Source of the DNA: a phage
Reading direction: 5' to 3' (one strand)
Length of the DNA stretch: 64,000 nucleotides
Sequence record: PZ386967.1
Part shown: positions 4,505 to 61,934 of the stretch, piece after piece
How the letters are laid out: every line of letters starts with the position of its first letter
Numbering within the stretch: position 1 is the first letter of the stretch
The notes under the pieces: generated by a model
Database searches by the model: none
What the model saw: the letters and a program-made list of their open reading frames with translations, nothing else
What the model was told of the DNA's origin: nothing
Program-made: the position numbers and the translations under genes

Positions 4505-4509
4505 CAAGA

Positions 4510-4537
4510 CCCCGCTTCGGCGGGGTTTTAAATTTTT
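4510..4537 (+). terminator. Rho-independent terminator
   Basis: Hairpin CCCCGC-TTCG-GCGGGG followed by a T-run. Confidence 0.7.
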
Positions 4538-4550
4538 CTAGATTATTTTA

Positions 4551-4578
4551 TTGAATTACTTTACTTCTTCAATAACTC
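4551..4578 (+). promoter_or_regulatory. T4-type early promoter (-35 TTTACT, 16-bp spacer, -10 TATAAT)
   Basis: Matches the repeated cassette; T4 early promoters have a GTTTAC-type -35. Conserved leader and start context follow. Confidence 0.55.
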
Positions 4579-4635
4579 ACGTATAATTCTAAACATAAGC
4601 AGTACGACACCAACTTGAAACGAAGGAACTATATC

Positions 4636-4992
4636 ATGACCAAGACCGAAATTAACGCTATCCTGAAAGAAATCGGCCTCTGCAACCTGAAACGCCGCGT
4701 CAATCCTTACCAGCCCGCAAAGCCAGTACGCGACAGCCAGGGAAAGATGATAAAAGGGATCTACTGTGCAGATGTTGGCCCAATGACTGTGACCAGTCCA
4801 CACATTGACAGATTTAACGCTATTGTTGAGGAGTTTTGTGGTAAGGTTCTGGGTGAACTAGCTAATGATTTATGCTCCCCAGATACCAAAGTTGTAGCTT
4901 TCGGGAGCCACCTCGTCACATTCCACCTCACCAGCTTCCGTGCCCACGGTGATTATCATGTGTATTATGCTCAGGTTAGCATTCGCAAATAG
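4636..4992 (+). CDS. Hypothetical early protein (119 aa)
   Basis: ATG inside the conserved GGAACTATATCATG start context; the track's 4615 start is an upstream TTG. Confidence 0.5.
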   Translation: MTKTEINAILKEIGLCNLKRRVNPYQPAKPVRDSQGKMIKGIYCADVGPMTVTSPHIDRFNAIVEEFCGKVLGELANDLCSPDTKVVAFGSHLVTFHLTSFRAHGDYHVYYAQVSIRK

Positions 4993-10424: not shown

Positions 10425-11276
10425 ATGAAACCTGAATTGCAAAAACTGTTTGAGGGCGTTAACGGCCTCAGCACCGACTTCCTGGATAAAGTGTCTGGTC
10501 TGCTGGAATCTAAAGTAGAAGCCGCTCGCCTGACCGCTATTCAAGAAACCGAAAACGCTGCCAATATTGAGCGCCTGCGTCTGGTTGAAGCTCATCAGGC
10601 TGAGATTGCTCAGCTGAAAGAGTCTCACTTGATGGAAATTGCGACCAAAGTCGATGGCTTCCTGAACGCGGTTGTAGAAGAGTGGGCTAACAAGAACGCT
10701 CCTGCCATCGACGCTCAGATCAAACGTGAAGCGGCTGAAAATCTGCTGGCTGGCCTGACTGGTGTTCTGAAAGAAGCTGGTATCAACTTTGCCACCGACG
10801 AAAACGGCCAGATCGCTGCGCTGACTGCCCGCCTGACCGAAGCAGAACGACGTGCTGCGATTGCCGAAAGCGAAAACCGTCAAATCAAAGAAGCCGCGAA
10901 TGCGACTCTGCGTGACTCTGTGATCGCCCGTATCTGTGAAGGTATGGTCGACACCAAGAAAGCAACGGTTGTCAATCTGCTGGAAGCTGTGCAGTTCACC
11001 ACCGAAAGCGAATTCGCTTCCCGCGTACACACCTTCCGCAACCTGGTAGAAGGTAAGTCCGTGAAGAAAGAAGGCGATGACGATGACGATGACTTCCAAG
11101 ACAAAGTCGGCGGAAAAGACGGCGATGACGACAACAAAGATGTTAAAGCCGAAGGCAAAAAGCCTAAGAAAGAAGGCGATGAAGATGACGATGAAGATGA
11201 AACAGACAAAGAGCTGAAAGAATCTATCAAGCGTCAGTTGGCCGACTATAATCGTCGCTTCGGCATCAACGGCTAA
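10425..11276 (+). CDS. gp22: Prohead scaffolding protein (gp22-like), coiled-coil with acidic C-terminus
   Basis: Position between gp21 and gp23; alpha-helical Ala/Glu-rich sequence with poly-Asp/Glu tail. Confidence 0.7.
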   Translation: MKPELQKLFEGVNGLSTDFLDKVSGLLESKVEAARLTAIQETENAANIERLRLVEAHQAEIAQLKESHLMEIATKVDGFLNAVVEEWANKNAPAIDAQIKREAAENLLAGLTGVLKEAGINFATDENGQIAALTARLTEAERRAAIAESENRQIKEAANATLRDSVIARICEGMVDTKKATVVNLLEAVQFTTESEFASRVHTFRNLVEGKSVKKEGDDDDDDFQDKVGGKDGDDDNKDVKAEGKKPKKEGDEDDDEDETDKELKESIKRQLADYNRRFGING

Positions 11277-13025: not shown

Positions 13026-13280
13026 TTGCCCCGTCTACTATCCGAGGGTTGTGCCATGTACCTGAAAAAGACTGTGAAGAAGCCGAAAGGCGAAGTGATC
13101 GAAGTGTGCCTTATTGAGGCTTATGTTGACTCCTGGAACAATGAGCAGCGCTACTTCATGGTCAACACATTGGTGTATGTGCCAGCCTCTCACCTGAACC
13201 GTGATTTCATCACAACCGAGAACATCGTCCGCTGGGAGATTGCAACGCAGTCCGATATCGACAAACACATCATTCTTTGA
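13026..13280 (+). CDS. Hypothetical protein (84 aa)
   Basis: ORF in the early-gene array; start uncertain. Confidence 0.35.
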   Translation: MPRLLSEGCAMYLKKTVKKPKGEVIEVCLIEAYVDSWNNEQRYFMVNTLVYVPASHLNRDFITTENIVRWEIATQSDIDKHIIL

Positions 13281-13297
13281 AAGGAAGGAACTATATC

Positions 13298-13741
13298 ATG
13301 TCAAAAGAGAAATACATTTTTATCAGTCCAGCCACGAAGGAGTTCTTCATCTCTGACGTGAAAGACCGTGTTGAGAAGTTCCGCTACATGCGCAGCTATG
13401 GTCTGGCGTCTGGTGAGATCGATTACCAGTCCCTGGATAATGATCGCCAGGATCTGATTGATGACGGCTGGCGTTTGGTCCCATCCCCTCAGTATATCCA
13501 TATCAAGCTGTACTACATGAAGGACAGCGGGAAGTATTATTCTGAAGGTGAACTCGTCCTCAATCGTGGAGAGGCTGAAGCTGAACCTGCTAAGTCCTGG
13601 ATGGACACTATGGATAAAATCCGCTATCTTCTCGACTCAGGCAATTTGCCCGGTTTGGTTAAAGGTGCCCGGTACGAGGTCTTCGTGACCGGAGAAGGGC
13701 ATCCAGGTGGTTATCCACAACTGTTCCGCATTAACAACTGA
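13298..13741 (+). CDS. Hypothetical protein (147 aa)
   Basis: ATG in conserved GGAACTATATCATG context. Confidence 0.5.
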   Translation: MSKEKYIFISPATKEFFISDVKDRVEKFRYMRSYGLASGEIDYQSLDNDRQDLIDDGWRLVPSPQYIHIKLYYMKDSGKYYSEGELVLNRGEAEAEPAKSWMDTMDKIRYLLDSGNLPGLVKGARYEVFVTGEGHPGGYPQLFRINN

Positions 13742-13986: not shown

Positions 13987-14006
13987 ATTTTAAATTTATT
14001 CAATAT

Positions 14007-14040
14007 ACGGGGTTTAATTCTTCAATAAACCCCGTATACT
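14007..14040 (+). promoter_or_regulatory. Hairpin plus T4-type early promoter (-35 TTTAAT, -10 TATACT)
   Basis: 10-bp perfect stem ACGGGGTTTA/TAAACCCCGT encloses the TTCTTCAATAA box; -10 TATACT at 14035-14040; conserved leader follows. Confidence 0.5.
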
Positions 14041-14089
14041 TCATTCCATAAGCAGCACAACATTGACTCTGAAATGAAGGAAATATATC

Positions 14090-14419
14090 ATGACTTTTAA
14101 AGGCTTTGTAGCATTCGACGCAACCAAAACCAACGTGCTGAGCAACCCGCAGCTGGAAACCATCTCTGAAATGCGCCAGTGGGTGATGGGGATCACTGGC
14201 CATCAAACCCGAAAGGATCTTGAAGCGGAGTTCTATATCGAACCTGCTGAAGTCTTCTTCAATCGCCCTGAAGATGAACCGTTCATCCGTCAAGACTTGG
14301 ATGACAATGATATCACTCTCGCGATCTTCTCTGAAGCAAAAGCGGCTATGATCGTGGACGGCCTGTGTGATGAGTCCTTCACATACGATGAATACTGCGA
14401 TCAGTGTCAGGATCTGTGA
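14090..14419 (+). CDS. Hypothetical acidic protein (109 aa)
   Basis: ATG in conserved start context after the early promoter cassette. Confidence 0.5.
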   Translation: MTFKGFVAFDATKTNVLSNPQLETISEMRQWVMGITGHQTRKDLEAEFYIEPAEVFFNRPEDEPFIRQDLDDNDITLAIFSEAKAAMIVDGLCDESFTYDEYCDQCQDL

Positions 14420-29981: not shown

Positions 29982-32174
29982 TCATTAACATTTAAGAATG
30001 CGGTTGCGACCGTTGCGCCGTCTAACCATGTAATCGTTGTGGATATCTCCGGTTCCATGTATCGTTCACTTCCAGAAGTCCGTAAGCATCTGAAGGAGAA
30101 CCTGCCTTCCCTGGTGAAACCCGAAGATACTGTGAGCATCCTTTACTTTTCATCTCGCGGTGATTTCGGAACGGTATTTGCCGGACGCCAGATCGGTGTC
30201 GCATCTGACCTGAGCGAGCTGAATAAGCTGATCGATCGCTTCCTGCAACCGTCCGGATGTACTGGCTTTGTTGAGCCGTTGAAACTGGCGATGGACACTG
30301 CTCGTAGCCTGAAGAAGCCTGGCTATGTCAACAACCTGGCGTTCATGACTGACGGGTATGACAACTGCTGGCGTACCAACGAAATCTTACTGGTTGCTGA
30401 GACCCTGCCATTTGCTTTCGATAACATTACTTTCATCGAATACGGCTGGCACTGTAACCGCGAACTGCTGGCGCAGATGGCCGAACGCTCCGGTGCGACC
30501 CACGTGTTTGCCGAAGGTCAGACCGAATACCAGACCGAACTAGAAAACGTGCTGAAGTCATCAGTGCCGAAGGTGAAAGTTGATGTCCCAGTCATCTACA
30601 CCCATGCCATCTACGTCGAAAACGGTGTGGCAACAGTACTGGCGGTGCAGGACGATGACTCTCACCCGGTCGGCTATGTGAGCATCCCTGAGAGCGTCAC
30701 CAAGCTGTGGGTTGTAAACCCTAACATGATCGACCAGCTTGATGCGCTGGCGGACATCCAGGCGGCATACGTGCTGGCGTTCTACGGCGTACACATCATG
30801 GACGCAGACCTGGTATGGGCTGCGCTGAAGAAGACGGGCGACGTTCGCTTCATCAAACAGTACAGCAACTGCTTTACCAAGCAGGACTACTCCAACATCA
30901 AGAACGATCTGGTACAGGCGATTGTTGACGACCAGCTGCGCGGCGTTGACGGTATTGACTATGACCTGGTTCCGGCTGAAGATGCGACGACCGTCGTTGA
31001 CGTGCTGACGTATCTGGCTGAAGCTGGCGTGTCTGTTGCCACCAAACATCCTATGTTCTCCTACAAGAGCATTGGTCGCGGTACTGTGCAGAAAGCGGAC
31101 GATACCGAAGACAAACTGGCAGAACAGATCGCGAATGCTCAGTCCAAAGAAGAGCGTAAAGCCCTGGCTCTCAAGCTGGCTGAGCACGAAGAATGGACGC
31201 CGTCGTTTGAACCTGCCAACGATCTGGGCGTTATCTCAATCAGCGATCTGGTCTACAACTCTGAGCGCCCGAACATCAGTGTGCGCACTATTCAGCATGG
31301 TACTGTGACTGTCCCTGAGTTCGCACAGAAGAAGTTTGGTCTGCCTGAAGAACTGGATACTTTCCAGTGGCGCAACTACACCATCGTCAAAGATGGTATC
31401 ATCAACGTGAAGACCCTGCCGTTCAAGGCTGATATCGAAGTTGTACAGAAGCTGATCGAAATGGGCGTCCACGTGTTTGGTGGACCGGAAGTGTTTGTCC
31501 TGAACCTGGAAAGCGTACCGCTGGTCAACCGCGCCATGGTCAAGAACATCAGTGCTGCTCAGTTCTTTGCGGATAATGTCCGTTTGGAAGCCCTGAAAGG
31601 CAAGCAGAAGGTGCTGAAGTTCTATCGAGACGCCCTGGTTGGTAAAGGTAACGCCAAAGGCCTGGCAGTACAGTACGGCGCTGAGGCGGCCGAGTTCCTG
31701 TCCTCCTACGGCATCCGCGATTACGGCTTCTCACCGAAGACTGAGACCAAAGAGTCTACCGACTTCTACATGAGCCGGGAGCTGAACGTGAAGATCGCTG
31801 GCGCTTCATCTCTACCGTCTATCGCAGCGGTACAGAAGAAGATTGCCGAGAACAAGAAACTCAATGCTGGTGACTTGTTCATCGCCAATGCTCTGAAAGA
31901 GTACGAAGCATTCGTGAAGTCTCCTATGATCACTGCCGTGCCTGAAGCCTTACAGAAACAGCTGATCGAAAACTGGATCGACGCTGCTGCCAAGGCGGCC
32001 ATCACCGAAGTCCGTGCCCTGAACAAGACACTGTCTAAAGTGGTGTATGGTATCGTTGCTGGCCACGGCTGGTTCACCGACCTCGACCTGGAAGAGTCCA
32101 CCATGGAAGTTGAAGTGGATGGCGTGAAGTACAAGGTCACTGCCGAACTGACAGAGAAAGAAATCAAAATCTAA
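29973..32174 (+). CDS. von Willebrand factor A (vWA) domain protein, 733 aa
   Basis: MIDAS motif DISGSM near N-terminus followed by a vWA-like region (LAFMTDG); long C-terminal extension of unknown function. Confidence 0.6.
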   Translation: MIESLTFKNAVATVAPSNHVIVVDISGSMYRSLPEVRKHLKENLPSLVKPEDTVSILYFSSRGDFGTVFAGRQIGVASDLSELNKLIDRFLQPSGCTGFVEPLKLAMDTARSLKKPGYVNNLAFMTDGYDNCWRTNEILLVAETLPFAFDNITFIEYGWHCNRELLAQMAERSGATHVFAEGQTEYQTELENVLKSSVPKVKVDVPVIYTHAIYVENGVATVLAVQDDDSHPVGYVSIPESVTKLWVVNPNMIDQLDALADIQAAYVLAFYGVHIMDADLVWAALKKTGDVRFIKQYSNCFTKQDYSNIKNDLVQAIVDDQLRGVDGIDYDLVPAEDATTVVDVLTYLAEAGVSVATKHPMFSYKSIGRGTVQKADDTEDKLAEQIANAQSKEERKALALKLAEHEEWTPSFEPANDLGVISISDLVYNSERPNISVRTIQHGTVTVPEFAQKKFGLPEELDTFQWRNYTIVKDGIINVKTLPFKADIEVVQKLIEMGVHVFGGPEVFVLNLESVPLVNRAMVKNISAAQFFADNVRLEALKGKQKVLKFYRDALVGKGNAKGLAVQYGAEAAEFLSSYGIRDYGFSPKTETKESTDFYMSRELNVKIAGASSLPSIAAVQKKIAENKKLNAGDLFIANALKEYEAFVKSPMITAVPEALQKQLIENWIDAAAKAAITEVRALNKTLSKVVYGIVAGHGWFTDLDLEESTMEVEVDGVKYKVTAELTEKEIKI

Positions 32175-32216
32175 TCCAACGGGCGGGGCAACCCGCCTTT
32201 CTTTGGGAGAAGTAGC

Positions 32217-32540
32217 ATGAGCAGTAAACCAACATATGTTGAAGTCATGCGTCATCTGGCTCAGTACGCCACTGACAATCTGAACTTGGATCTGTGGCGT
32301 GACGATGACAAGCGCAAATTGCTGGACGACGTGGCATCTCAGAACGAGGACGCCCTAGACAAGCTGGCTGGCCTCCGCACCAAGAAAGACCTCGGCGGTG
32401 ATGAACTGGACGCTATCGAAATTGTAATGGACCTCGAAGAAGAGTTTCAGGTCGAAATCGACGATGGTTGGCTGGGCAGTAAAGGTGATGACCCGACCAT
32501 GGGTGAACTCGCTGAACTCGTGGTTGCCCTGCGCAAATAA
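32217..32540 (+). CDS. Acyl-carrier-protein-like acidic protein with the phosphopantetheine Ser replaced by Glu
   Basis: DLGGDELDAIEIVMDLEEEFQVEIDD aligns with E. coli ACP [26 protein letters not shown]; the attachment Ser is Glu here. Confidence 0.55.
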   Translation: MSSKPTYVEVMRHLAQYATDNLNLDLWRDDDKRKLLDDVASQNEDALDKLAGLRTKKDLGGDELDAIEIVMDLEEEFQVEIDDGWLGSKGDDPTMGELAELVVALRK

Positions 32541-32544
32541 CAGA

Positions 32545-32609
32545 AGTCCCCAACAAACGTTGGGGATTTTTACTTTTAGGGGTTTACTTCTATAATGTAA
32601 ATGCGTATT
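32545..32609 (+). promoter_or_regulatory. Terminator plus T4-type early promoter cassette (copy A)
   Basis: Hairpin TCCCCAAC-AAAC-GTTGGGGA with T-run, then -35 TTTACT (32581-32586), 17 bp, -10 TATTAT (32604-32609). Confidence 0.55.
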
Positions 32610-32660
32610 ATTGAATTCATAGAGCGGGGCGTTCCTGTTCATTGAAAGAAGGTATACATT

Positions 32661-32885
32661 ATGTCTGCTATATCATGTGTTGTTGATCTCACCCCATTTT
32701 GCCTGAACAATATTGCTAACCCTAAATTGGTCTTGTTTAAGGATCCCTCTAATTTCTGCTGGCTGGCAAGTTGTGATACCAACAACGGGCGTCGTGCTGT
32801 TTGGGAGTTTCCCGCAACTGATGAAGGCAGAATTTCTGCTATAAGAAAATTAGAACTAGAAAATTCAAGCCGAGAAATTAAATAG
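32661..32885 (+). CDS. Hypothetical Cys-containing small protein (74 aa)
   Basis: ORF flanked by near-identical cassette copies; RBS AAGAAGG. Confidence 0.4.
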   Translation: MSAISCVVDLTPFCLNNIANPKLVLFKDPSNFCWLASCDTNNGRRAVWEFPATDEGRISAIRKLELENSSREIK

Positions 32886-32902
32886 GCATAACTTTTATTA
32901 AA

Positions 32903-32968
32903 TCCCCAACAAACGTTGGGGATTTTTAACTTTTAGGGGTTTACTTCCTTTAAGGAATGTCCTATTAT
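32903..32968 (+). promoter_or_regulatory. Terminator plus T4-type early promoter cassette (copy B)
   Basis: Near-identical to copy A (1-bp indel); -35 TTTACT 32940-32945, -10 TATTAT 32963-32968. Confidence 0.55.
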
Positions 32969-33019
32969 TCAATAACTGGCGAACGATGGGTTCACCGGGT
33001 TGAAAGGTAAGATTATATC

Positions 33020-33259
33020 ATGAAGAACAAAATGGTCGAAACTTCAGTAGAGATTGATCGCAATTGGGGATTGCTCCGCGCTAAAGGGTTCCGTCGTGTG
33101 TATGCGACCAAAGAAGTCTACGCACAGCGCCGTGACGTTATCATCAGCAAGAAAGGCAAAGAGTGGGTTGCTGAAGAAGTTGATGTCGAGACAGGCATCG
33201 TAGGAAAGGTAAAGGCCAAGGCCGTGATCCTCTTCGCTCTTCTGAAGCACATCAGTTAA
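33020..33259 (+). CDS. Hypothetical protein (79 aa)
   Basis: ORF after cassette copy B with RBS AAAGG. Confidence 0.4.
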   Translation: MKNKMVETSVEIDRNWGLLRAKGFRRVYATKEVYAQRRDVIISKKGKEWVAEEVDVETGIVGKVKAKAVILFALLKHIS

Positions 33260-33318
33260 TTCTATAACTTTGGGCGGGGTATGATTACCCCGTCTATTTG
33301 AAATGCAGGAACTATACC

Positions 33319-33825
33319 ATGACCGATCAACAAATTCAAGATTTATTTTACCTCGTCCATGATAAGTCCCACATCATGCGCCCCGGTACTGTTTCCCCTG
33401 CCGTCCGTGATCTGGTGCAAGAATTGCGCGAACCACAGACGACCACACTTTATCGCGGGTTGCCTAAAGAGGACGTTGCGCGTTTAGAGATGATGTTTGA
33501 ACGAGGCGACATGTTCCAGACATGGGATTCTTGCCTTAGCTTCAGTGAACTGAAGCATGTGGCCAAAAAATTTTCTAAATCGTACGGAACCCAAGCTGTT
33601 GCCCGCATTTGTTACAAACATCGAAACAGACTCCCGGAGGGGCTTAATGTCTATGGTTCTCTAGAAAAATTTGTGAACAAAGGCGATGAATCAGAAATGG
33701 ATATGCTGGACTTGGCGTCCATGGAGAAAGAATGGATATTCTGCCAGCCTCGCGTCATACCAGTTTCAAGAAAAATGGCAACAGACGGCACGATGGTTTT
33801 TACCGTATCACTTGTTACCCTATAA
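33319..33825 (+). CDS. Hypothetical protein (168 aa)
   Basis: ATG in conserved GGAACTATACCATG context; flanked by identical 31-bp hairpin-leader repeats. Confidence 0.5.
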   Translation: MTDQQIQDLFYLVHDKSHIMRPGTVSPAVRDLVQELREPQTTTLYRGLPKEDVARLEMMFERGDMFQTWDSCLSFSELKHVAKKFSKSYGTQAVARICYKHRNRLPEGLNVYGSLEKFVNKGDESEMDMLDLASMEKEWIFCQPRVIPVSRKMATDGTMVFTVSLVTL

Positions 33826-33877
33826 ACCCACGGCGGGGTATGATTACCCCGTCTATTTGAAACCAAGAGACTATATC

Positions 33878-34255
33878 ATGAAAAAGTTAATCCTCGCTGT
33901 TGCCCTGCTGGGCGCTTCCTTTGCTGCTGTTTCCGCCCCTCCTGTCATCACCGGAGTGTCTACCAACGGTGTTTATGCTTTCAAGGCGTATGGCCAAGAC
34001 CTCGTTCTGTATAAGAACGGGAAGATGATTGAGCGCTGCGTATCAGACGACGTGAATCGTGGGATCGACAATCAGGGTAGCCCATACGTCCTGGACATCT
34101 ATTCCTGCTCCAACGGGACGAAGTCCTTTGGCGTCAAGACCTTTGGCAACGTCGCCGACGGTGGCTGGGGCTTCATGTTCGAAACCCGCAACCACCACCC
34201 GGTCAAGACCATGCAAGAAGAGTTCTTGATCTCTGTCGGGGGTGGAACATTATGA
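33878..34255 (+). CDS. Secreted protein with signal peptide (125 aa)
   Basis: MKKLILAVALLGASFAAVSA|PP signal peptide; conserved start context. Confidence 0.5.
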   Translation: MKKLILAVALLGASFAAVSAPPVITGVSTNGVYAFKAYGQDLVLYKNGKMIERCVSDDVNRGIDNQGSPYVLDIYSCSNGTKSFGVKTFGNVADGGWGFMFETRNHHPVKTMQEEFLISVGGGTL

Positions 34256-34539
34256 CGCCTGAACAACGCCGTTCCGTGAAAGTCATGGTGAAAGGTAAGA
34301 CTCAGCTGAGTTATGTCCAGTCTGCCAATGTTGTCCGCCTGATGGAAGTCAAGAACGACATCGACAACTCCCGATTCCAATCGGCACTCTACGGGCTTCT
34401 CGAGTTCGTTCTTCGCCAGGCTGATCTTGGTCCTGTCTATACTCTTGATGATCTGACCAAGCTGTTGAACACGGGCGGGGAAGGTTTCGACACTGCTCGT
34501 ATCCTGATTGACGGTGGACCTAAAGAAGACGAGGTATAA
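34252..34539 (+). CDS. Hypothetical protein (95 aa)
   Basis: Start overlaps the upstream stop (ATGA). Confidence 0.4.
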   Translation: MTPEQRRSVKVMVKGKTQLSYVQSANVVRLMEVKNDIDNSRFQSALYGLLEFVLRQADLGPVYTLDDLTKLLNTGGEGFDTARILIDGGPKEDEV

Positions 34540-34540
34540 T

Positions 34541-34699
34541 TTGGATAAAGAATTGGTTTGGGAAATTGTGAAGGGTGTCCTAGTAATAATCGCGGTGGTT
34601 TTCATCTTGGGTGGAAACTTCTTCTATTGGTTATTCCGATCCGACCAGAAACGTCGCGAACGCAAGGAGAAAGAGAGAAAGGATCGATGGATGCGCTAA
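34541..34699 (+). CDS. Small membrane protein (~52 aa), single TM helix and basic tail; start uncertain
   Basis: VLVIIAVVFILGGNFFYWLF hydrophobic segment followed by KRRERKEKERK; possible TTG start after GAGG. Confidence 0.25.
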   Translation: MDKELVWEIVKGVLVIIAVVFILGGNFFYWLFRSDQKRRERKEKERKDRWMR

Positions 34700-34731
34700 C
34701 TAAGGGATAACCCTATATCCCGAGGTGTGTC

Positions 34732-35181
34732 ATGTTCCTTACATCCTTTATTGACTGGTTGAACATCATTAACGGCCTGAGGATCCCTGTTGGGAACCTC
34801 GGGCTTTCTCGTTCTTCTATGCCGCAAATCGATGCCGACAAACAAGAAGATTTTCACAAATATCTTGAAGACAACGGCGTGTCCATAGATGCTGTGCAAG
34901 TGCCCATCAAAATGCTTCGTCTCACCCAGAACGAAATCAACAAGATGAAGGTCTGGAAGATCATGAAGCAGATCAGAAATAAGAAACCTATGGGTCGAGT
35001 TTGGGTGTCTTCTGACAATTACGTTGTTGACGGTTCTCACCGATTTGTCGCTGCGTTGAACATGGACGGCAAACAGCGCATGAAGGTCTACAAAGTTGAT
35101 TTGCCAGCGATGGAATTTGTTAAACTCGCTAAACAGTTTCAGGGTGTGCGATACAGAACGGTCAGCGATACCCGTTTCTGA
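34732..35181 (+). CDS. ParB-like nuclease-domain protein
   Basis: YVVDGSHRFVAA resembles the DGxHR motif of ParB/Srx-fold domains. Confidence 0.4.
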   Translation: MFLTSFIDWLNIINGLRIPVGNLGLSRSSMPQIDADKQEDFHKYLEDNGVSIDAVQVPIKMLRLTQNEINKMKVWKIMKQIRNKKPMGRVWVSSDNYVVDGSHRFVAALNMDGKQRMKVYKVDLPAMEFVKLAKQFQGVRYRTVSDTRF

Positions 35182-48343: not shown

Positions 48344-48388
48344 AAGGGGCTTTTGCCCCTTTACTTCTTCAATATCCTTCCCTATACT
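48344..48388 (+). promoter_or_regulatory. Terminator plus T4-type early promoter cassette
   Basis: Hairpin AAGGGGC-TTTT-GCCCCTT, then -35 TTTACT (48360-48365), 17 bp, -10 TATACT (48383-48388); conserved leader. Confidence 0.55.
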
Positions 48389-48436
48389 TCATTCCATAAG
48401 CAACACAACACCAACTTGAAAAGCAGGAACTACACC

Positions 48437-48712
48437 ATGAAAATTATCCTCGACGCATATATCCGCCACGGTCAGAAATACCTGATGGCCAAGGTTTACG
48501 ACGGCGAAGAATTGATCCACGCCCAGACCGCCCCAGCTGCCCAGCTGCGAGAAATCATGTCACGCGACTTCCCTGGTGTTGAAATGGTAGAGCCTACCAA
48601 CCAGGCCGAAGTAGACAAAGAGTGGGAGCGCGAATGGAGTCCAGCGGCTATCGCTCGGGCTGAAAAGAATTGGTCTAACCGCGAAAACGCAAACCGCCCT
48701 TTCCGCCGTTAA
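48437..48712 (+). CDS. Hypothetical protein (91 aa)
   Basis: ATG in conserved GGAACTACACCATG context. Confidence 0.45.
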   Translation: MKIILDAYIRHGQKYLMAKVYDGEELIHAQTAPAAQLREIMSRDFPGVEMVEPTNQAEVDKEWEREWSPAAIARAEKNWSNRENANRPFRR

Positions 48713-48734
48713 TTTGAACCGAAGGAACTATATC

Positions 48735-49070
48735 ATGACACAACTCAAGAACTTCACCGCCGATGACATGTTTGCCTTCCAGGGTGCTGAGCACTTTGCT
48801 GACGGCTCCGTACCTCGCATCTACTACTTCTCCGACGAAGAAATGGAAGATTTCTTCGCCCTGATGGAAAAGGACTACGAACCAGACGACTTCGTTTATA
48901 TCATCCATCACGCCGAAGGACTGACATTGGGCTGGACGGCCAACAATGAACCAGAAGAAGTAAACTTCCCTGAAGGTATCATGTCAGAGCGCGTCGAATA
49001 TCTACTGGAAGCCCTGGACCCCCACACCCTCCCGCTCTGGGCGATGTCTGTAGCCCAAGTTCAAAAATAA
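48735..49070 (+). CDS. Hypothetical acidic protein (111 aa)
   Basis: ATG in conserved GGAACTATATCATG context. Confidence 0.45.
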   Translation: MTQLKNFTADDMFAFQGAEHFADGSVPRIYYFSDEEMEDFFALMEKDYEPDDFVYIIHHAEGLTLGWTANNEPEEVNFPEGIMSERVEYLLEALDPHTLPLWAMSVAQVQK

Positions 49071-54468: not shown

Positions 54469-54563
54469 AGGCCTCATTCGACGAGGCCTTTTAAAATACT
54501 TCAAAAATAATTTTAAAAAATTATTGAAAAAGACTTTACTCTTCAATAATGATGCACTATTAT
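54469..54563 (+). promoter_or_regulatory. Terminator followed by AT-rich region and T4-type early promoter
   Basis: Hairpin AGGCCTC-ATTCGAC-GAGGCCT with T-run; -35 TTTACT 54535-54540, 17 bp, -10 TATTAT 54558-54563. Confidence 0.55.
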
Positions 54564-61123: not shown

Positions 61124-61170
61124 AGCCCCTCAATGAGGGGCTTTACTTCTATAATCCCTGCGCTTATACT
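61124..61170 (+). promoter_or_regulatory. Terminator plus T4-type early promoter cassette
   Basis: Hairpin GCCCCTCA-A-TGAGGGGC, then -35 TTTACT (61142-61147), 17 bp, -10 TATACT (61165-61170). Confidence 0.55.
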
Positions 61171-61221
61171 TCCCAGTAATTCATTGGCATTCGCCACAAA
61201 TTGAACAGCAGGAACTATATC

Positions 61222-61461
61222 ATGACCGACTCTGAAGTCTACGACACCTCAATGAAATACCACGCCATGACAGCCAAACGCGGCTGTGCTGCTAACAAGG
61301 CATATTGGATAGGTGAACTCAGAACCCTCCGCGCCGTGGTCAACCACGAAATCATTATGAATCACGACAACAACGGTCAAGGTAAAGACCGAGAAGAATT
61401 GAAGGTTGCTCGTGAACGTCTTCGCTTTGGTCTGACCAAAGCCCTTGAATATGTGAAATAA
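61222..61461 (+). CDS. Hypothetical protein (79 aa)
   Basis: ATG in conserved GGAACTATATCATG context. Confidence 0.45.
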   Translation: MTDSEVYDTSMKYHAMTAKRGCAANKAYWIGELRTLRAVVNHEIIMNHDNNGQGKDREELKVARERLRFGLTKALEYVK

Positions 61462-61472
61462 GGAACTATATC

Positions 61473-61934
61473 ATGACAAACAAAGTACTCACCAACCCAC
61501 TGCACAACTTCGGTTACATTCAACTCCCTCTGGTGATCGACACCCTGTACGCCGACGACAAAGAAGAGATCTGCTGGTCACCCACCGCACTGATTGAACG
61601 CGAAATCTTCAAGTCTGTTGTTGATGTCATGTTCCGTATCGGTCGCAATGGACCTCTGGTCTACCTCGGCAAGGTGACTGAGTTGAAGACAAGCCACAAC
61701 GAACGCTTCCTTCGTATCGATACAACGGGGTGCTCTCATCAGGACTTCAACACATTGCGCAATTATGTTCTGGTCAACCGCCCGGTCAGTCAACACCGCC
61801 CGTATCTGACGTCAATGCACATCGACAATTTCATCACCGACGTACACCTCCGCGCCGAAACCCTCCATGAAGAGGAAACAGGCCGAGCTATCGACACAGT
61901 CTTAAATATGGTTGTGATCACCCTGGCGGAGTAG
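61473..61934 (+). CDS. Hypothetical protein (153 aa)
   Basis: ATG in conserved GGAACTATATCATG context. Confidence 0.45.
   Translation: MTNKVLTNPLHNFGYIQLPLVIDTLYADDKEEICWSPTALIEREIFKSVVDVMFRIGRNGPLVYLGKVTELKTSHNERFLRIDTTGCSHQDFNTLRNYVLVNRPVSQHRPYLTSMHIDNFITDVHLRAETLHEEETGRAIDTVLNMVVITLAE

Follow-up and report, generated by a model that had tools for sequence, protein, structure and literature searches.

The closest described counterparts of the locus analyzed here are the PeSLs (promoter-early stem-loop elements) of T4-like phages, in which a σ70-like early promoter is combined with a stem-loop terminator (PMC2839356). PeSLs are found in variable regions, in front of small genes of unassigned function, the genes they flank are present or absent between close relatives, and a single chimeric element remains at empty sites (Arbiol et al. 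2010, PMC2839356). In PeSLs of the T4/PST type, the promoter is TTTACW-N17-TAYWAT, and the stem-loop immediately precedes it (Comeau et al. 2014, PMC4122927). Promoter and terminator activity, as well as mini-circles, were demonstrated experimentally for RB49/phi1 (PMC2839356, PMC4122927).

Here, we analyzed a 64-kb stretch of phage DNA (referred to below as the window), in which two copies of a repeated module bracket a gene coding for a 74-aa protein, ORF74. The modules resemble PeSLs in their composition, in the position of the stem-loop just 5' of the promoter, and in the promoter itself, the TTTACT-17-TATTAT of both copies matching the T4/PST PeSL consensus TTTACW-N17-TAYWAT (by sequence match only). 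As with PeSLs, the flanked genes are present or absent in close relatives, empty sites have a single and sometimes chimeric element, and one slot can be filled by alternative cargos. In the 64 kb examined, the elements also seem to be repeated and to lie directly upstream of small genes of unassigned function. There are also differences. The host family is Ackermannviridae, whereas PeSLs belong to T4-like phages (Straboviridae). The 44-nt core occurs at only one slot, once or twice per genome, whereas PeSLs are present as dozens of copies of one sequence. The activity and the mini-circles are experimental results in RB49/phi1, whereas the module described here is known from sequence predictions, and two of the three cassettes in the window use a promoterless hairpin or a translation-initiation repeat instead. 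In the literature that could be searched, no paper joined PeSLs with Ackermannviridae terms; the Ag3 and LIMEstone genome papers list early promoters and rho-independent terminators without tying them to indels. PeSL-type modular shuffling, known in T4-like phages, is thus apparently new for Ackermannviridae, although no new kind of system emerges from it.

Two other arrangements are comparable in part. Lambdoid morons, reportedly defined by Hendrix and colleagues as genes that come with a promoter and a terminator of their own and are inserted between two genes adjacent in relatives, were described in temperate phages, in which expression typically occurs from the prophage. ORF74, judging by its predicted signals, is likewise an autonomous unit between genes adjacent in most relatives, but Ackermannviridae are a virulent-type family, and the ORF74 unit is bounded by a duplicated module. 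Integron cassettes depend on a tyrosine-recombinase integrase and imperfect attC hairpin sites, and carry promoterless cargo. Small single-gene units, hairpin-forming repeats at their ends, and presence/absence polymorphism are common to both systems. Unlike in integrons, there is no integrase here and no recombinase among the neighboring ORFs, the hairpin is a perfect stem followed by a T-run rather than an attC site, the cargo has a predicted promoter of its own, and it is found at one locus.

Results

The Source Phage and the Genes Flanking ORF74

The window region is 95.6% identical to Escherichia phage vB_EcoM-ZQ1, and matched 231 records in a megablast search and 272 in a blastn search, nearly all of which carry the label of a phage infecting enterobacteria. 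All of the records that were fetched belonged to Ackermannviridae or a close relative. Judged from these matches, the source of the window is an Ackermannviridae phage. Upstream of the bracketed segment, on the plus strand as are all features of this locus, is the gene of a 107-aa acyl carrier protein (ACP; 32217-32540; Pfam PP-binding, E=2.7e-5; PHROG 4154, E=6.8e-57). Downstream is a family-conserved gene, ORF79 (79 aa; 33020-33259; PHROG 804, E=4.7e-29), which was present in 17 of 17 compared loci. In the public ZQ1 record (MW650886.1), both ORF74 (whose protein is 100% identical) and ORF168, a gene described below, are unannotated.

Two Near-Identical Copies of a Module Bracket ORF74

Direct reading of positions 32000-33500 revealed a left repeat core, TCCCCAACAAACGTTGGGGATTTTTACTTTTAGGGGTTTACTTC (44 nt; 32547-32590), and a right repeat core, TTTTTAAC (45 nt; 32903-32947), the latter being the left string with one extra A. 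Counted with their shared leading AA, the copies occupy 32544-32590 and 32900-32947. Apart from the 1-nt indel, all 44 shared core positions are identical. The near-identical direct repeats with a 1-bp indel reported in the earlier note are therefore real, their coordinates having been off by 4 nt or less, and the ORF listing contains the 74-aa, ATG-initiated ORF that the note had placed between them (32661-32885). On the 3' side of the core is a divergent 15-nt spacer, TATAATGTAAATGCG in the left copy versus CTTTAAGGAATGTCC in the right, followed by TATTATT in both copies (32606-32612 and 32963-32969). The core, the divergent 15 nt, and the shared TATTATT explain why a repeat finder returns a 55-nt family.

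With up to three mismatches allowed, a 17-mer, TTTTAGGGGTTTACTTC, still has exactly two occurrences in the 64 kb (0.11 expected), a number that none of 100 shuffles reached. Among the repeats of the window that contain both a hairpin and a promoter, only the 32544/32900 pair is near-identical. The extra A of the right copy (ca. 32928-32929) is present in the window only, and is absent from eight of eight other aligned right-hand copies. It abolishes the upstream TTTACT hexamer that in the left copy forms a second, overlapping promoter-like site.

Each Copy Combines a Predicted Terminator with a Predicted Promoter

The left copy (32544-32590) contains a perfect stem, TCCCCAAC-AAAC-GTTGGGGA, which makes up the first 20 nt of the core (32547-32566) and is followed by a T5 run (32567-32571), an A/T-rich segment, and a -35 element TTTACT (32583-32588). 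The right copy (32900-32947) has the same order of elements, with the hairpin at 32903-32922, the T5 run at 32923-32927, then the extra A, and TTTACT at 32940-32945. RNA folding gave -18.5 kcal/mol (z=-5.2) for the left copy and -16.3 kcal/mol (z=-5.5) for the right one, and a terminator scan matched at 32900-32925, in the right copy. In both copies, the GC-rich stem of 8-13 bp with its T5 run is a predicted terminator. When 14 copies from different phages were compared, 99% of the stem positions were paired, with compensatory changes at two stem pairs (C-G replaced by U-A in three copies, and U-A by G-C in a single copy). An Rfam search of 31000-35000 gave no match at E<=1.

Immediately downstream of the left hairpin, a promoter scan identified TTTACT-17 nt-TATTAT at 32583-32611 (P2), which overlaps with a second promoter-like site, TTTACT-16 nt-TATAAT at 32569-32596 (P1). 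The right copy contains a promoter-like site, TTTACT-17 nt-TATTAT at 32940-32968, that is predicted to drive ORF79. The pattern TTTACT-N16-18-TATNAT occurs six times in the window versus 0.02 expected, and the homologous site in the LIMEstone1 record is annotated as terminator and minus_35_signal. In the 64 kb examined, further TTTACTTC promoters with a hairpin were found at ca. 4509-4587, 14005-14040, 48345-48390, and 61125-61170; their hairpins adjoin the promoter hexamers, fuse with them, or sit between them. At one promoter instance, 54535-54563, an A/T-rich upstream region takes the place of the hairpin. Each copy of the module is thus predicted to consist of a terminator followed by an early-type promoter, which would make ORF74 a one-gene transcription unit.

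The hairpin loop (32555-32558 and 32911-32914 in the window) exists in two forms that are reverse complements of each other, AAAC and GTTT, and differs even between the two copies of one genome in LHE287, CAU_YEP3, and SJ3. In another hairpin of the window, that of the second cassette (see below), most phages have a TGAT loop, and ZQ1 has ATCA. That loops were inverted repeatedly suggests that templates were switched within the palindrome.

ORF74 Is a Genuine Gene of Ackermannviridae

The leader of ORF74 (32613-32660, plus strand) contains a degenerate GC hairpin, followed by ATTGAAAGAAGG, the Shine-Dalgarno region, and folds with -12.4 kcal/mol (z=-2.5). ORF74 itself belongs to PHROG 22629 (E=2.4e-48), a family without assigned function. 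It is encoded in 32 phage records, once in each and always at the ACP/ORF79 slot, and is under purifying selection (dN/dS 0.03-0.18). ORF74 is a genuine gene. Among Kuttervirus and Aglimvirinae, its alleles differ by dS from about 0.6 to above 1 with the module still flanking them, and relative to the allele of Klebsiella phage Magnus dS is saturated. We conclude from these dS values that the gene and its bracketing modules are old. In Magnus, where the same type of leader is retained with the gene, ORF74 abuts ORF79 and the right-hand module is absent; the gene therefore does not require the bracket.

Homologues of ORF74 formed three clusters among 5.8 billion proteins, and an exhaustive profile search returned three representatives among 1.84 billion; the gene is restricted to the Ackermannviridae family. 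Neither Pfam nor PADLOC gave a match. The best AlphaFold2 model (pLDDT 81.6) has four strands and a C-terminal helix, and the pLDDT of the five models ranged from 54 to 82, so the fold prediction is unstable. When the model was compared with the PDB, no match was better than E=0.6. To assign ORF74 an early role in host interaction would be guesswork.

ORF74 and One Module Are Missing in Several Relatives

Alignment of the locus revealed that the window, ZQ1, and LHE287 carry two modules and ORF74, and that fGh-Ecl02, MK-13, A221, and Maynard carry one module without ORF74. The presence or absence of exactly this segment in relatives, which the earlier note had proposed as a check, is thus confirmed: a unit of ca. 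356 nt is absent from four aligned phages. In these four, the sequence that otherwise precedes the left copy and the sequence that otherwise follows the right copy are joined by the single module, and the order is ACP stop context, single module, and ORF79 leader. Both modules were found in nine of nine checked ORF74 carriers among Kuttervirus or Aglimvirinae phages (window, ZQ1, LHE287, CAU_YEP3, CECAV_050, SJ3, RA148, KE31, and phage 241). Based on slot spans in 60 records sampled across the 272, about 30 slots are empty, five hold ORF74, and 11 hold other cargo.

The module core matched 166 records at 196 places, and the two-place records among the matches listed are ORF74 carriers. For RA148, three places were listed by the core search; the whole genome was found to contain two module copies only (up to 4 substitutions in the 29-nt core and in the hairpin at 1-100000 and 118000-159063, and up to 3 mismatches in a 25-29-nt core elsewhere). 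The third listed place perhaps represents a partial match of lower quality, or a match of the palindromic hairpin to the opposite strand.

Both copies are conserved across genera and the indel has the size of the cassette, and, as far as can be judged from these alignments, the earlier reading of an optional cassette between repeats is supported. It has to be qualified. Gain and loss by recombination between promoter cassettes agrees with the observed polymorphism, but the repeat is a predicted terminator plus promoter, not a promoter alone. The view of an inserted cassette stands for loss, gain, or replacement at a fixed slot, but not for movement to new sites, ORF74 being at one locus in 32 records.

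The ACP/ORF79 Slot Is Multi-Allelic and Mosaic

Across phages, four unrelated alternative small ORFs are found directly behind the module in the ACP/ORF79 slot. Alternative cargos include Ag3 orf139 (94 aa), a 79-aa ORF of the Matapan_103 type in Matapan, EspM4VN, and phage 241, and PS5_76 (55 aa) in PS5. The alternative cargos are unrelated to ORF74 and ORF79; a homologue elsewhere in the window would have meant movement between loci, and a search of the window found none. The promoter located 3' of Ag3 orf139 is identical at 28 of 28 nt to window positions 4560-4587. Around the latter site, a 98-nt promoter and leader (4559-4656) is 91-97% identical in many Kuttervirus records, where its flanks drop out of megablast.

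Comparison of individual genes revealed a mosaic pattern. Relative to the window, the ACP gene of SJ3 is 66% identical, its ORF74, ORF79, and ORF168 are 92-95% identical, and the core is 92% identical. In RA148, identity is 88% for ACP, 82% for ORF74, 82% for ORF79, and 94% for ORF168, switching at each module, and in KE31 the identity steps resemble those of SJ3 in being located at modules, not inside genes. In most phages with only 66-80% identity in the flanking genes, the module core retains 92-100% identity (it is lower, 84-87%, in RA148). Based on the conservation of the core and the gene-by-gene identity steps, the modules are high-identity islands where exchanges appear to occur.

A left-type spacer is present in the single copy of Maynard and in the right copy of LHE287, and in Maynard it is joined to a right-type leader, forming a chimeric single module. 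Gene conversion, or crossovers located at different points, would produce such copies. Left and right spacers are identical within the genome in four of nine genomes (permutation p=0.13, not significant). Concerted evolution of the left and right copies is not claimed at this p value, and functional constraint would by itself suffice to explain why the copies are nearly identical.

Two Further Small Genes in the Window Are Flanked by Repeats

Downstream of ORF79, on the plus strand, two 50-nt repeats with 88% identity and a spacing of 559 nt form a second pair. Its left copy (33273-33322) contains a hairpin, GGCGGGGTA-TGAT-TACCCCGTC, followed by TATTTGAAA and the Shine-Dalgarno/start region, and folds with -18.8 kcal/mol (z=-5.1); its right copy (33832-33881) was identified by repeat finding and folding. 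Between them is the second optional cargo, ORF168 (33319-33825, plus strand; PHROG 832, E=5.8e-15), whose product is similar to RNA polymerase ADP-ribosylase family proteins in their C-terminal part. ORF168 is absent from LHE287, A221, and Maynard, where one hairpin copy remains. Considered together, ORF74 and ORF168 occur in all four combinations of presence and absence among phages whose flanking genes are 91-100% identical, which calls for several events or for recombination among phages.

The third cassette, also on the plus strand, is bracketed by a 25-nt translation-initiation repeat, TTGAAAAGCAGGAACTACACCATGA (repeat families D1-D3), with a left copy at 48416-48440 and a right copy at 48714-48738, spaced by 298 nt. 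The 91-aa ORF between them (48437-48712) is absent from ZQ1, in which exactly 298 nt are missing relative to the window, with the junction within AGGAACTA. The same shorter span is found in LHE287, fGh-Ecl02, and several other phages. Exact homology at the junction is only about 8 nt, a feature that microhomology or slippage would fit better than recombinase-driven exchange. In all three cassettes (ORF74, ORF168, and ORF91), the size of the indel equals the spacing of the repeats.

The translation-initiation context TTGAAA..(A)AGGAACTATATCATGA is strongly conserved at eight gene starts in the window (family D1: 4611-4657, 13273-13319, 14065-14111, 33294-33340, 33853-33899, 48710-48756, 61197-61243, and 61448-61494).

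Discussion

We consider it probable that the repeats are composite regulatory modules whose duplicated copies allow cassettes to be deleted, inserted, or swapped. Observed directly are the anatomy of the modules, the predicted stability of their hairpins, the exact cassette-sized indels, the alternative cargos, and the gene-by-gene mosaicism. From these we infer that the modules work as promoters and terminators, and likewise how they recombine and in which direction the events went, as follows. The hairpin and T-run of the module would terminate the transcript of the upstream gene, and the σ70-like early promoter directly 3' of the terminator, TTTACT-17-TATTAT, would start the next one; ORF74 with its own leader would then be a self-contained transcription unit between the ACP gene and ORF79. 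Since the module is nearly invariant across the family, its two copies, separated by about 356 nt, would provide direct homology over 44-70 nt. If recombination or template switching took place between the copies, the unit would be deleted and one module would remain, which would sometimes be chimeric. In cells infected by more than one related phage, recombination at modules could insert, restore, or swap the cassette. The same process may apply to the two other repeat-flanked small genes of the window. On the evidence of the comparisons, the near-identity of the copies is due to conservation of the module and not to recent duplication, given that the module is also present at empty sites and that the ORF74 alleles are old, which means that the copies are not a remnant of some recent insertion. 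The most economical history is one in which an originally filled slot lost its cassette repeatedly and relatives infecting the same cell exchanged sequence. The direction of single events cannot be read from the junctions, because homologous exchange is reversible. ORF74 is found at a single locus in all 32 records, and nothing thus points to its transposition to other module sites or to mini-circles.

The same observations could be accounted for without any role of the repeats in recombination. In such a case, the repeats would be conserved regulatory signals only, and ordinary exchange, with crossovers anywhere in the ACP gene or ORF79, would create the polymorphism, the modules marking gene boundaries without giving rise to the indels. 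In favor of this view are the strong mosaicism of the region, the 91-100% identity of ORF79 among many phages, which could make it a homology arm, the confinement of ORF74 to one locus, and the non-significant signal of left/right concerted evolution. Yet identity steps are located at modules and not within genes (from 66% to 95% in SJ3, and similarly in KE31 and RA148), three independent cassettes have an indel size equal to the repeat spacing, and four unrelated cargos lie directly behind the same module. We therefore regard ordinary exchange alone as unlikely. Far less probable still, to the point that we give it very little weight, is that the copies are the scar of a recent mobile-element insertion (a target-site or terminal duplication) or the ends of an integron-like cassette. 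Hairpin-bearing direct repeats around a single small ORF do have such an appearance, but empty sites contain one module as well, 166 records have matches to it, the module-flanked ORF74 alleles differ by dS of 0.6 to above 1, which makes the arrangement old, and the cassette has a promoter of its own, unlike integron cassettes. A transposon, an integron, and a homing endonuclease were each considered and rejected: no transposase, integrase, or homing endonuclease is encoded in the cassette or next to it, and the module is found at empty sites.

More credible, if still doubtful as a full account, are deletions by replication slippage (copy-choice), perhaps aided by the hairpin, which would involve neither a recombinase nor a circular product. 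The repeats are short (25-70 nt) and close to each other (298-559 nt), the junction of the third cassette has about 8 nt of exact homology, and the loop inversions, AAAC/GTTT and TGAT/ATCA, are a signature of template switching within palindromes. However, insertion or replacement by unrelated cargos and cross-genus mosaicism require exchange between molecules. At the other extreme, the modules might be active recombination hot spots that serve as a cross-genus scaffold for single-gene exchange at multi-allelic slots. The DNA hairpin itself would then promote template switching, as the loop inversions suggest, and excised cassette circles could be packaged and transferred, a fate that has been proposed for the mini-circles of PeSLs. 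We put this forward tentatively and think it has a rather small chance of being correct. Recombination at duplicated modules with a regulatory role, as outlined above, is the explanation that we favor.

If recombination at duplicated modules is indeed responsible, single-gene shuffling at conserved terminator/promoter modules would extend from T4-like phages to Ackermannviridae, a family in wide use against Salmonella, E. coli O157, Shigella, Klebsiella, and Dickeya, both for biocontrol and in phage therapy. It would account for much of the patchy gene content that distinguishes near-identical isolates, and would predict which of the small accessory genes are unstable in production stocks. The ACP/ORF79 slot, with its predicted promoter, would be a natural, self-expressing insertion site for engineering.

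Two other features of the window were observed. At 11067-11208, three tandem-like 40-nt units (AAAGAAGGCGATGACGATGAC...; family D4), spaced by 48 and 54 nt, code for acidic residues. A 149-aa ORF at 34732-35181, whose translation was read by eye, contains a motif, ...YVVDGSHRFVAAL..., that presumably recalls ParB-like nuclease domains.
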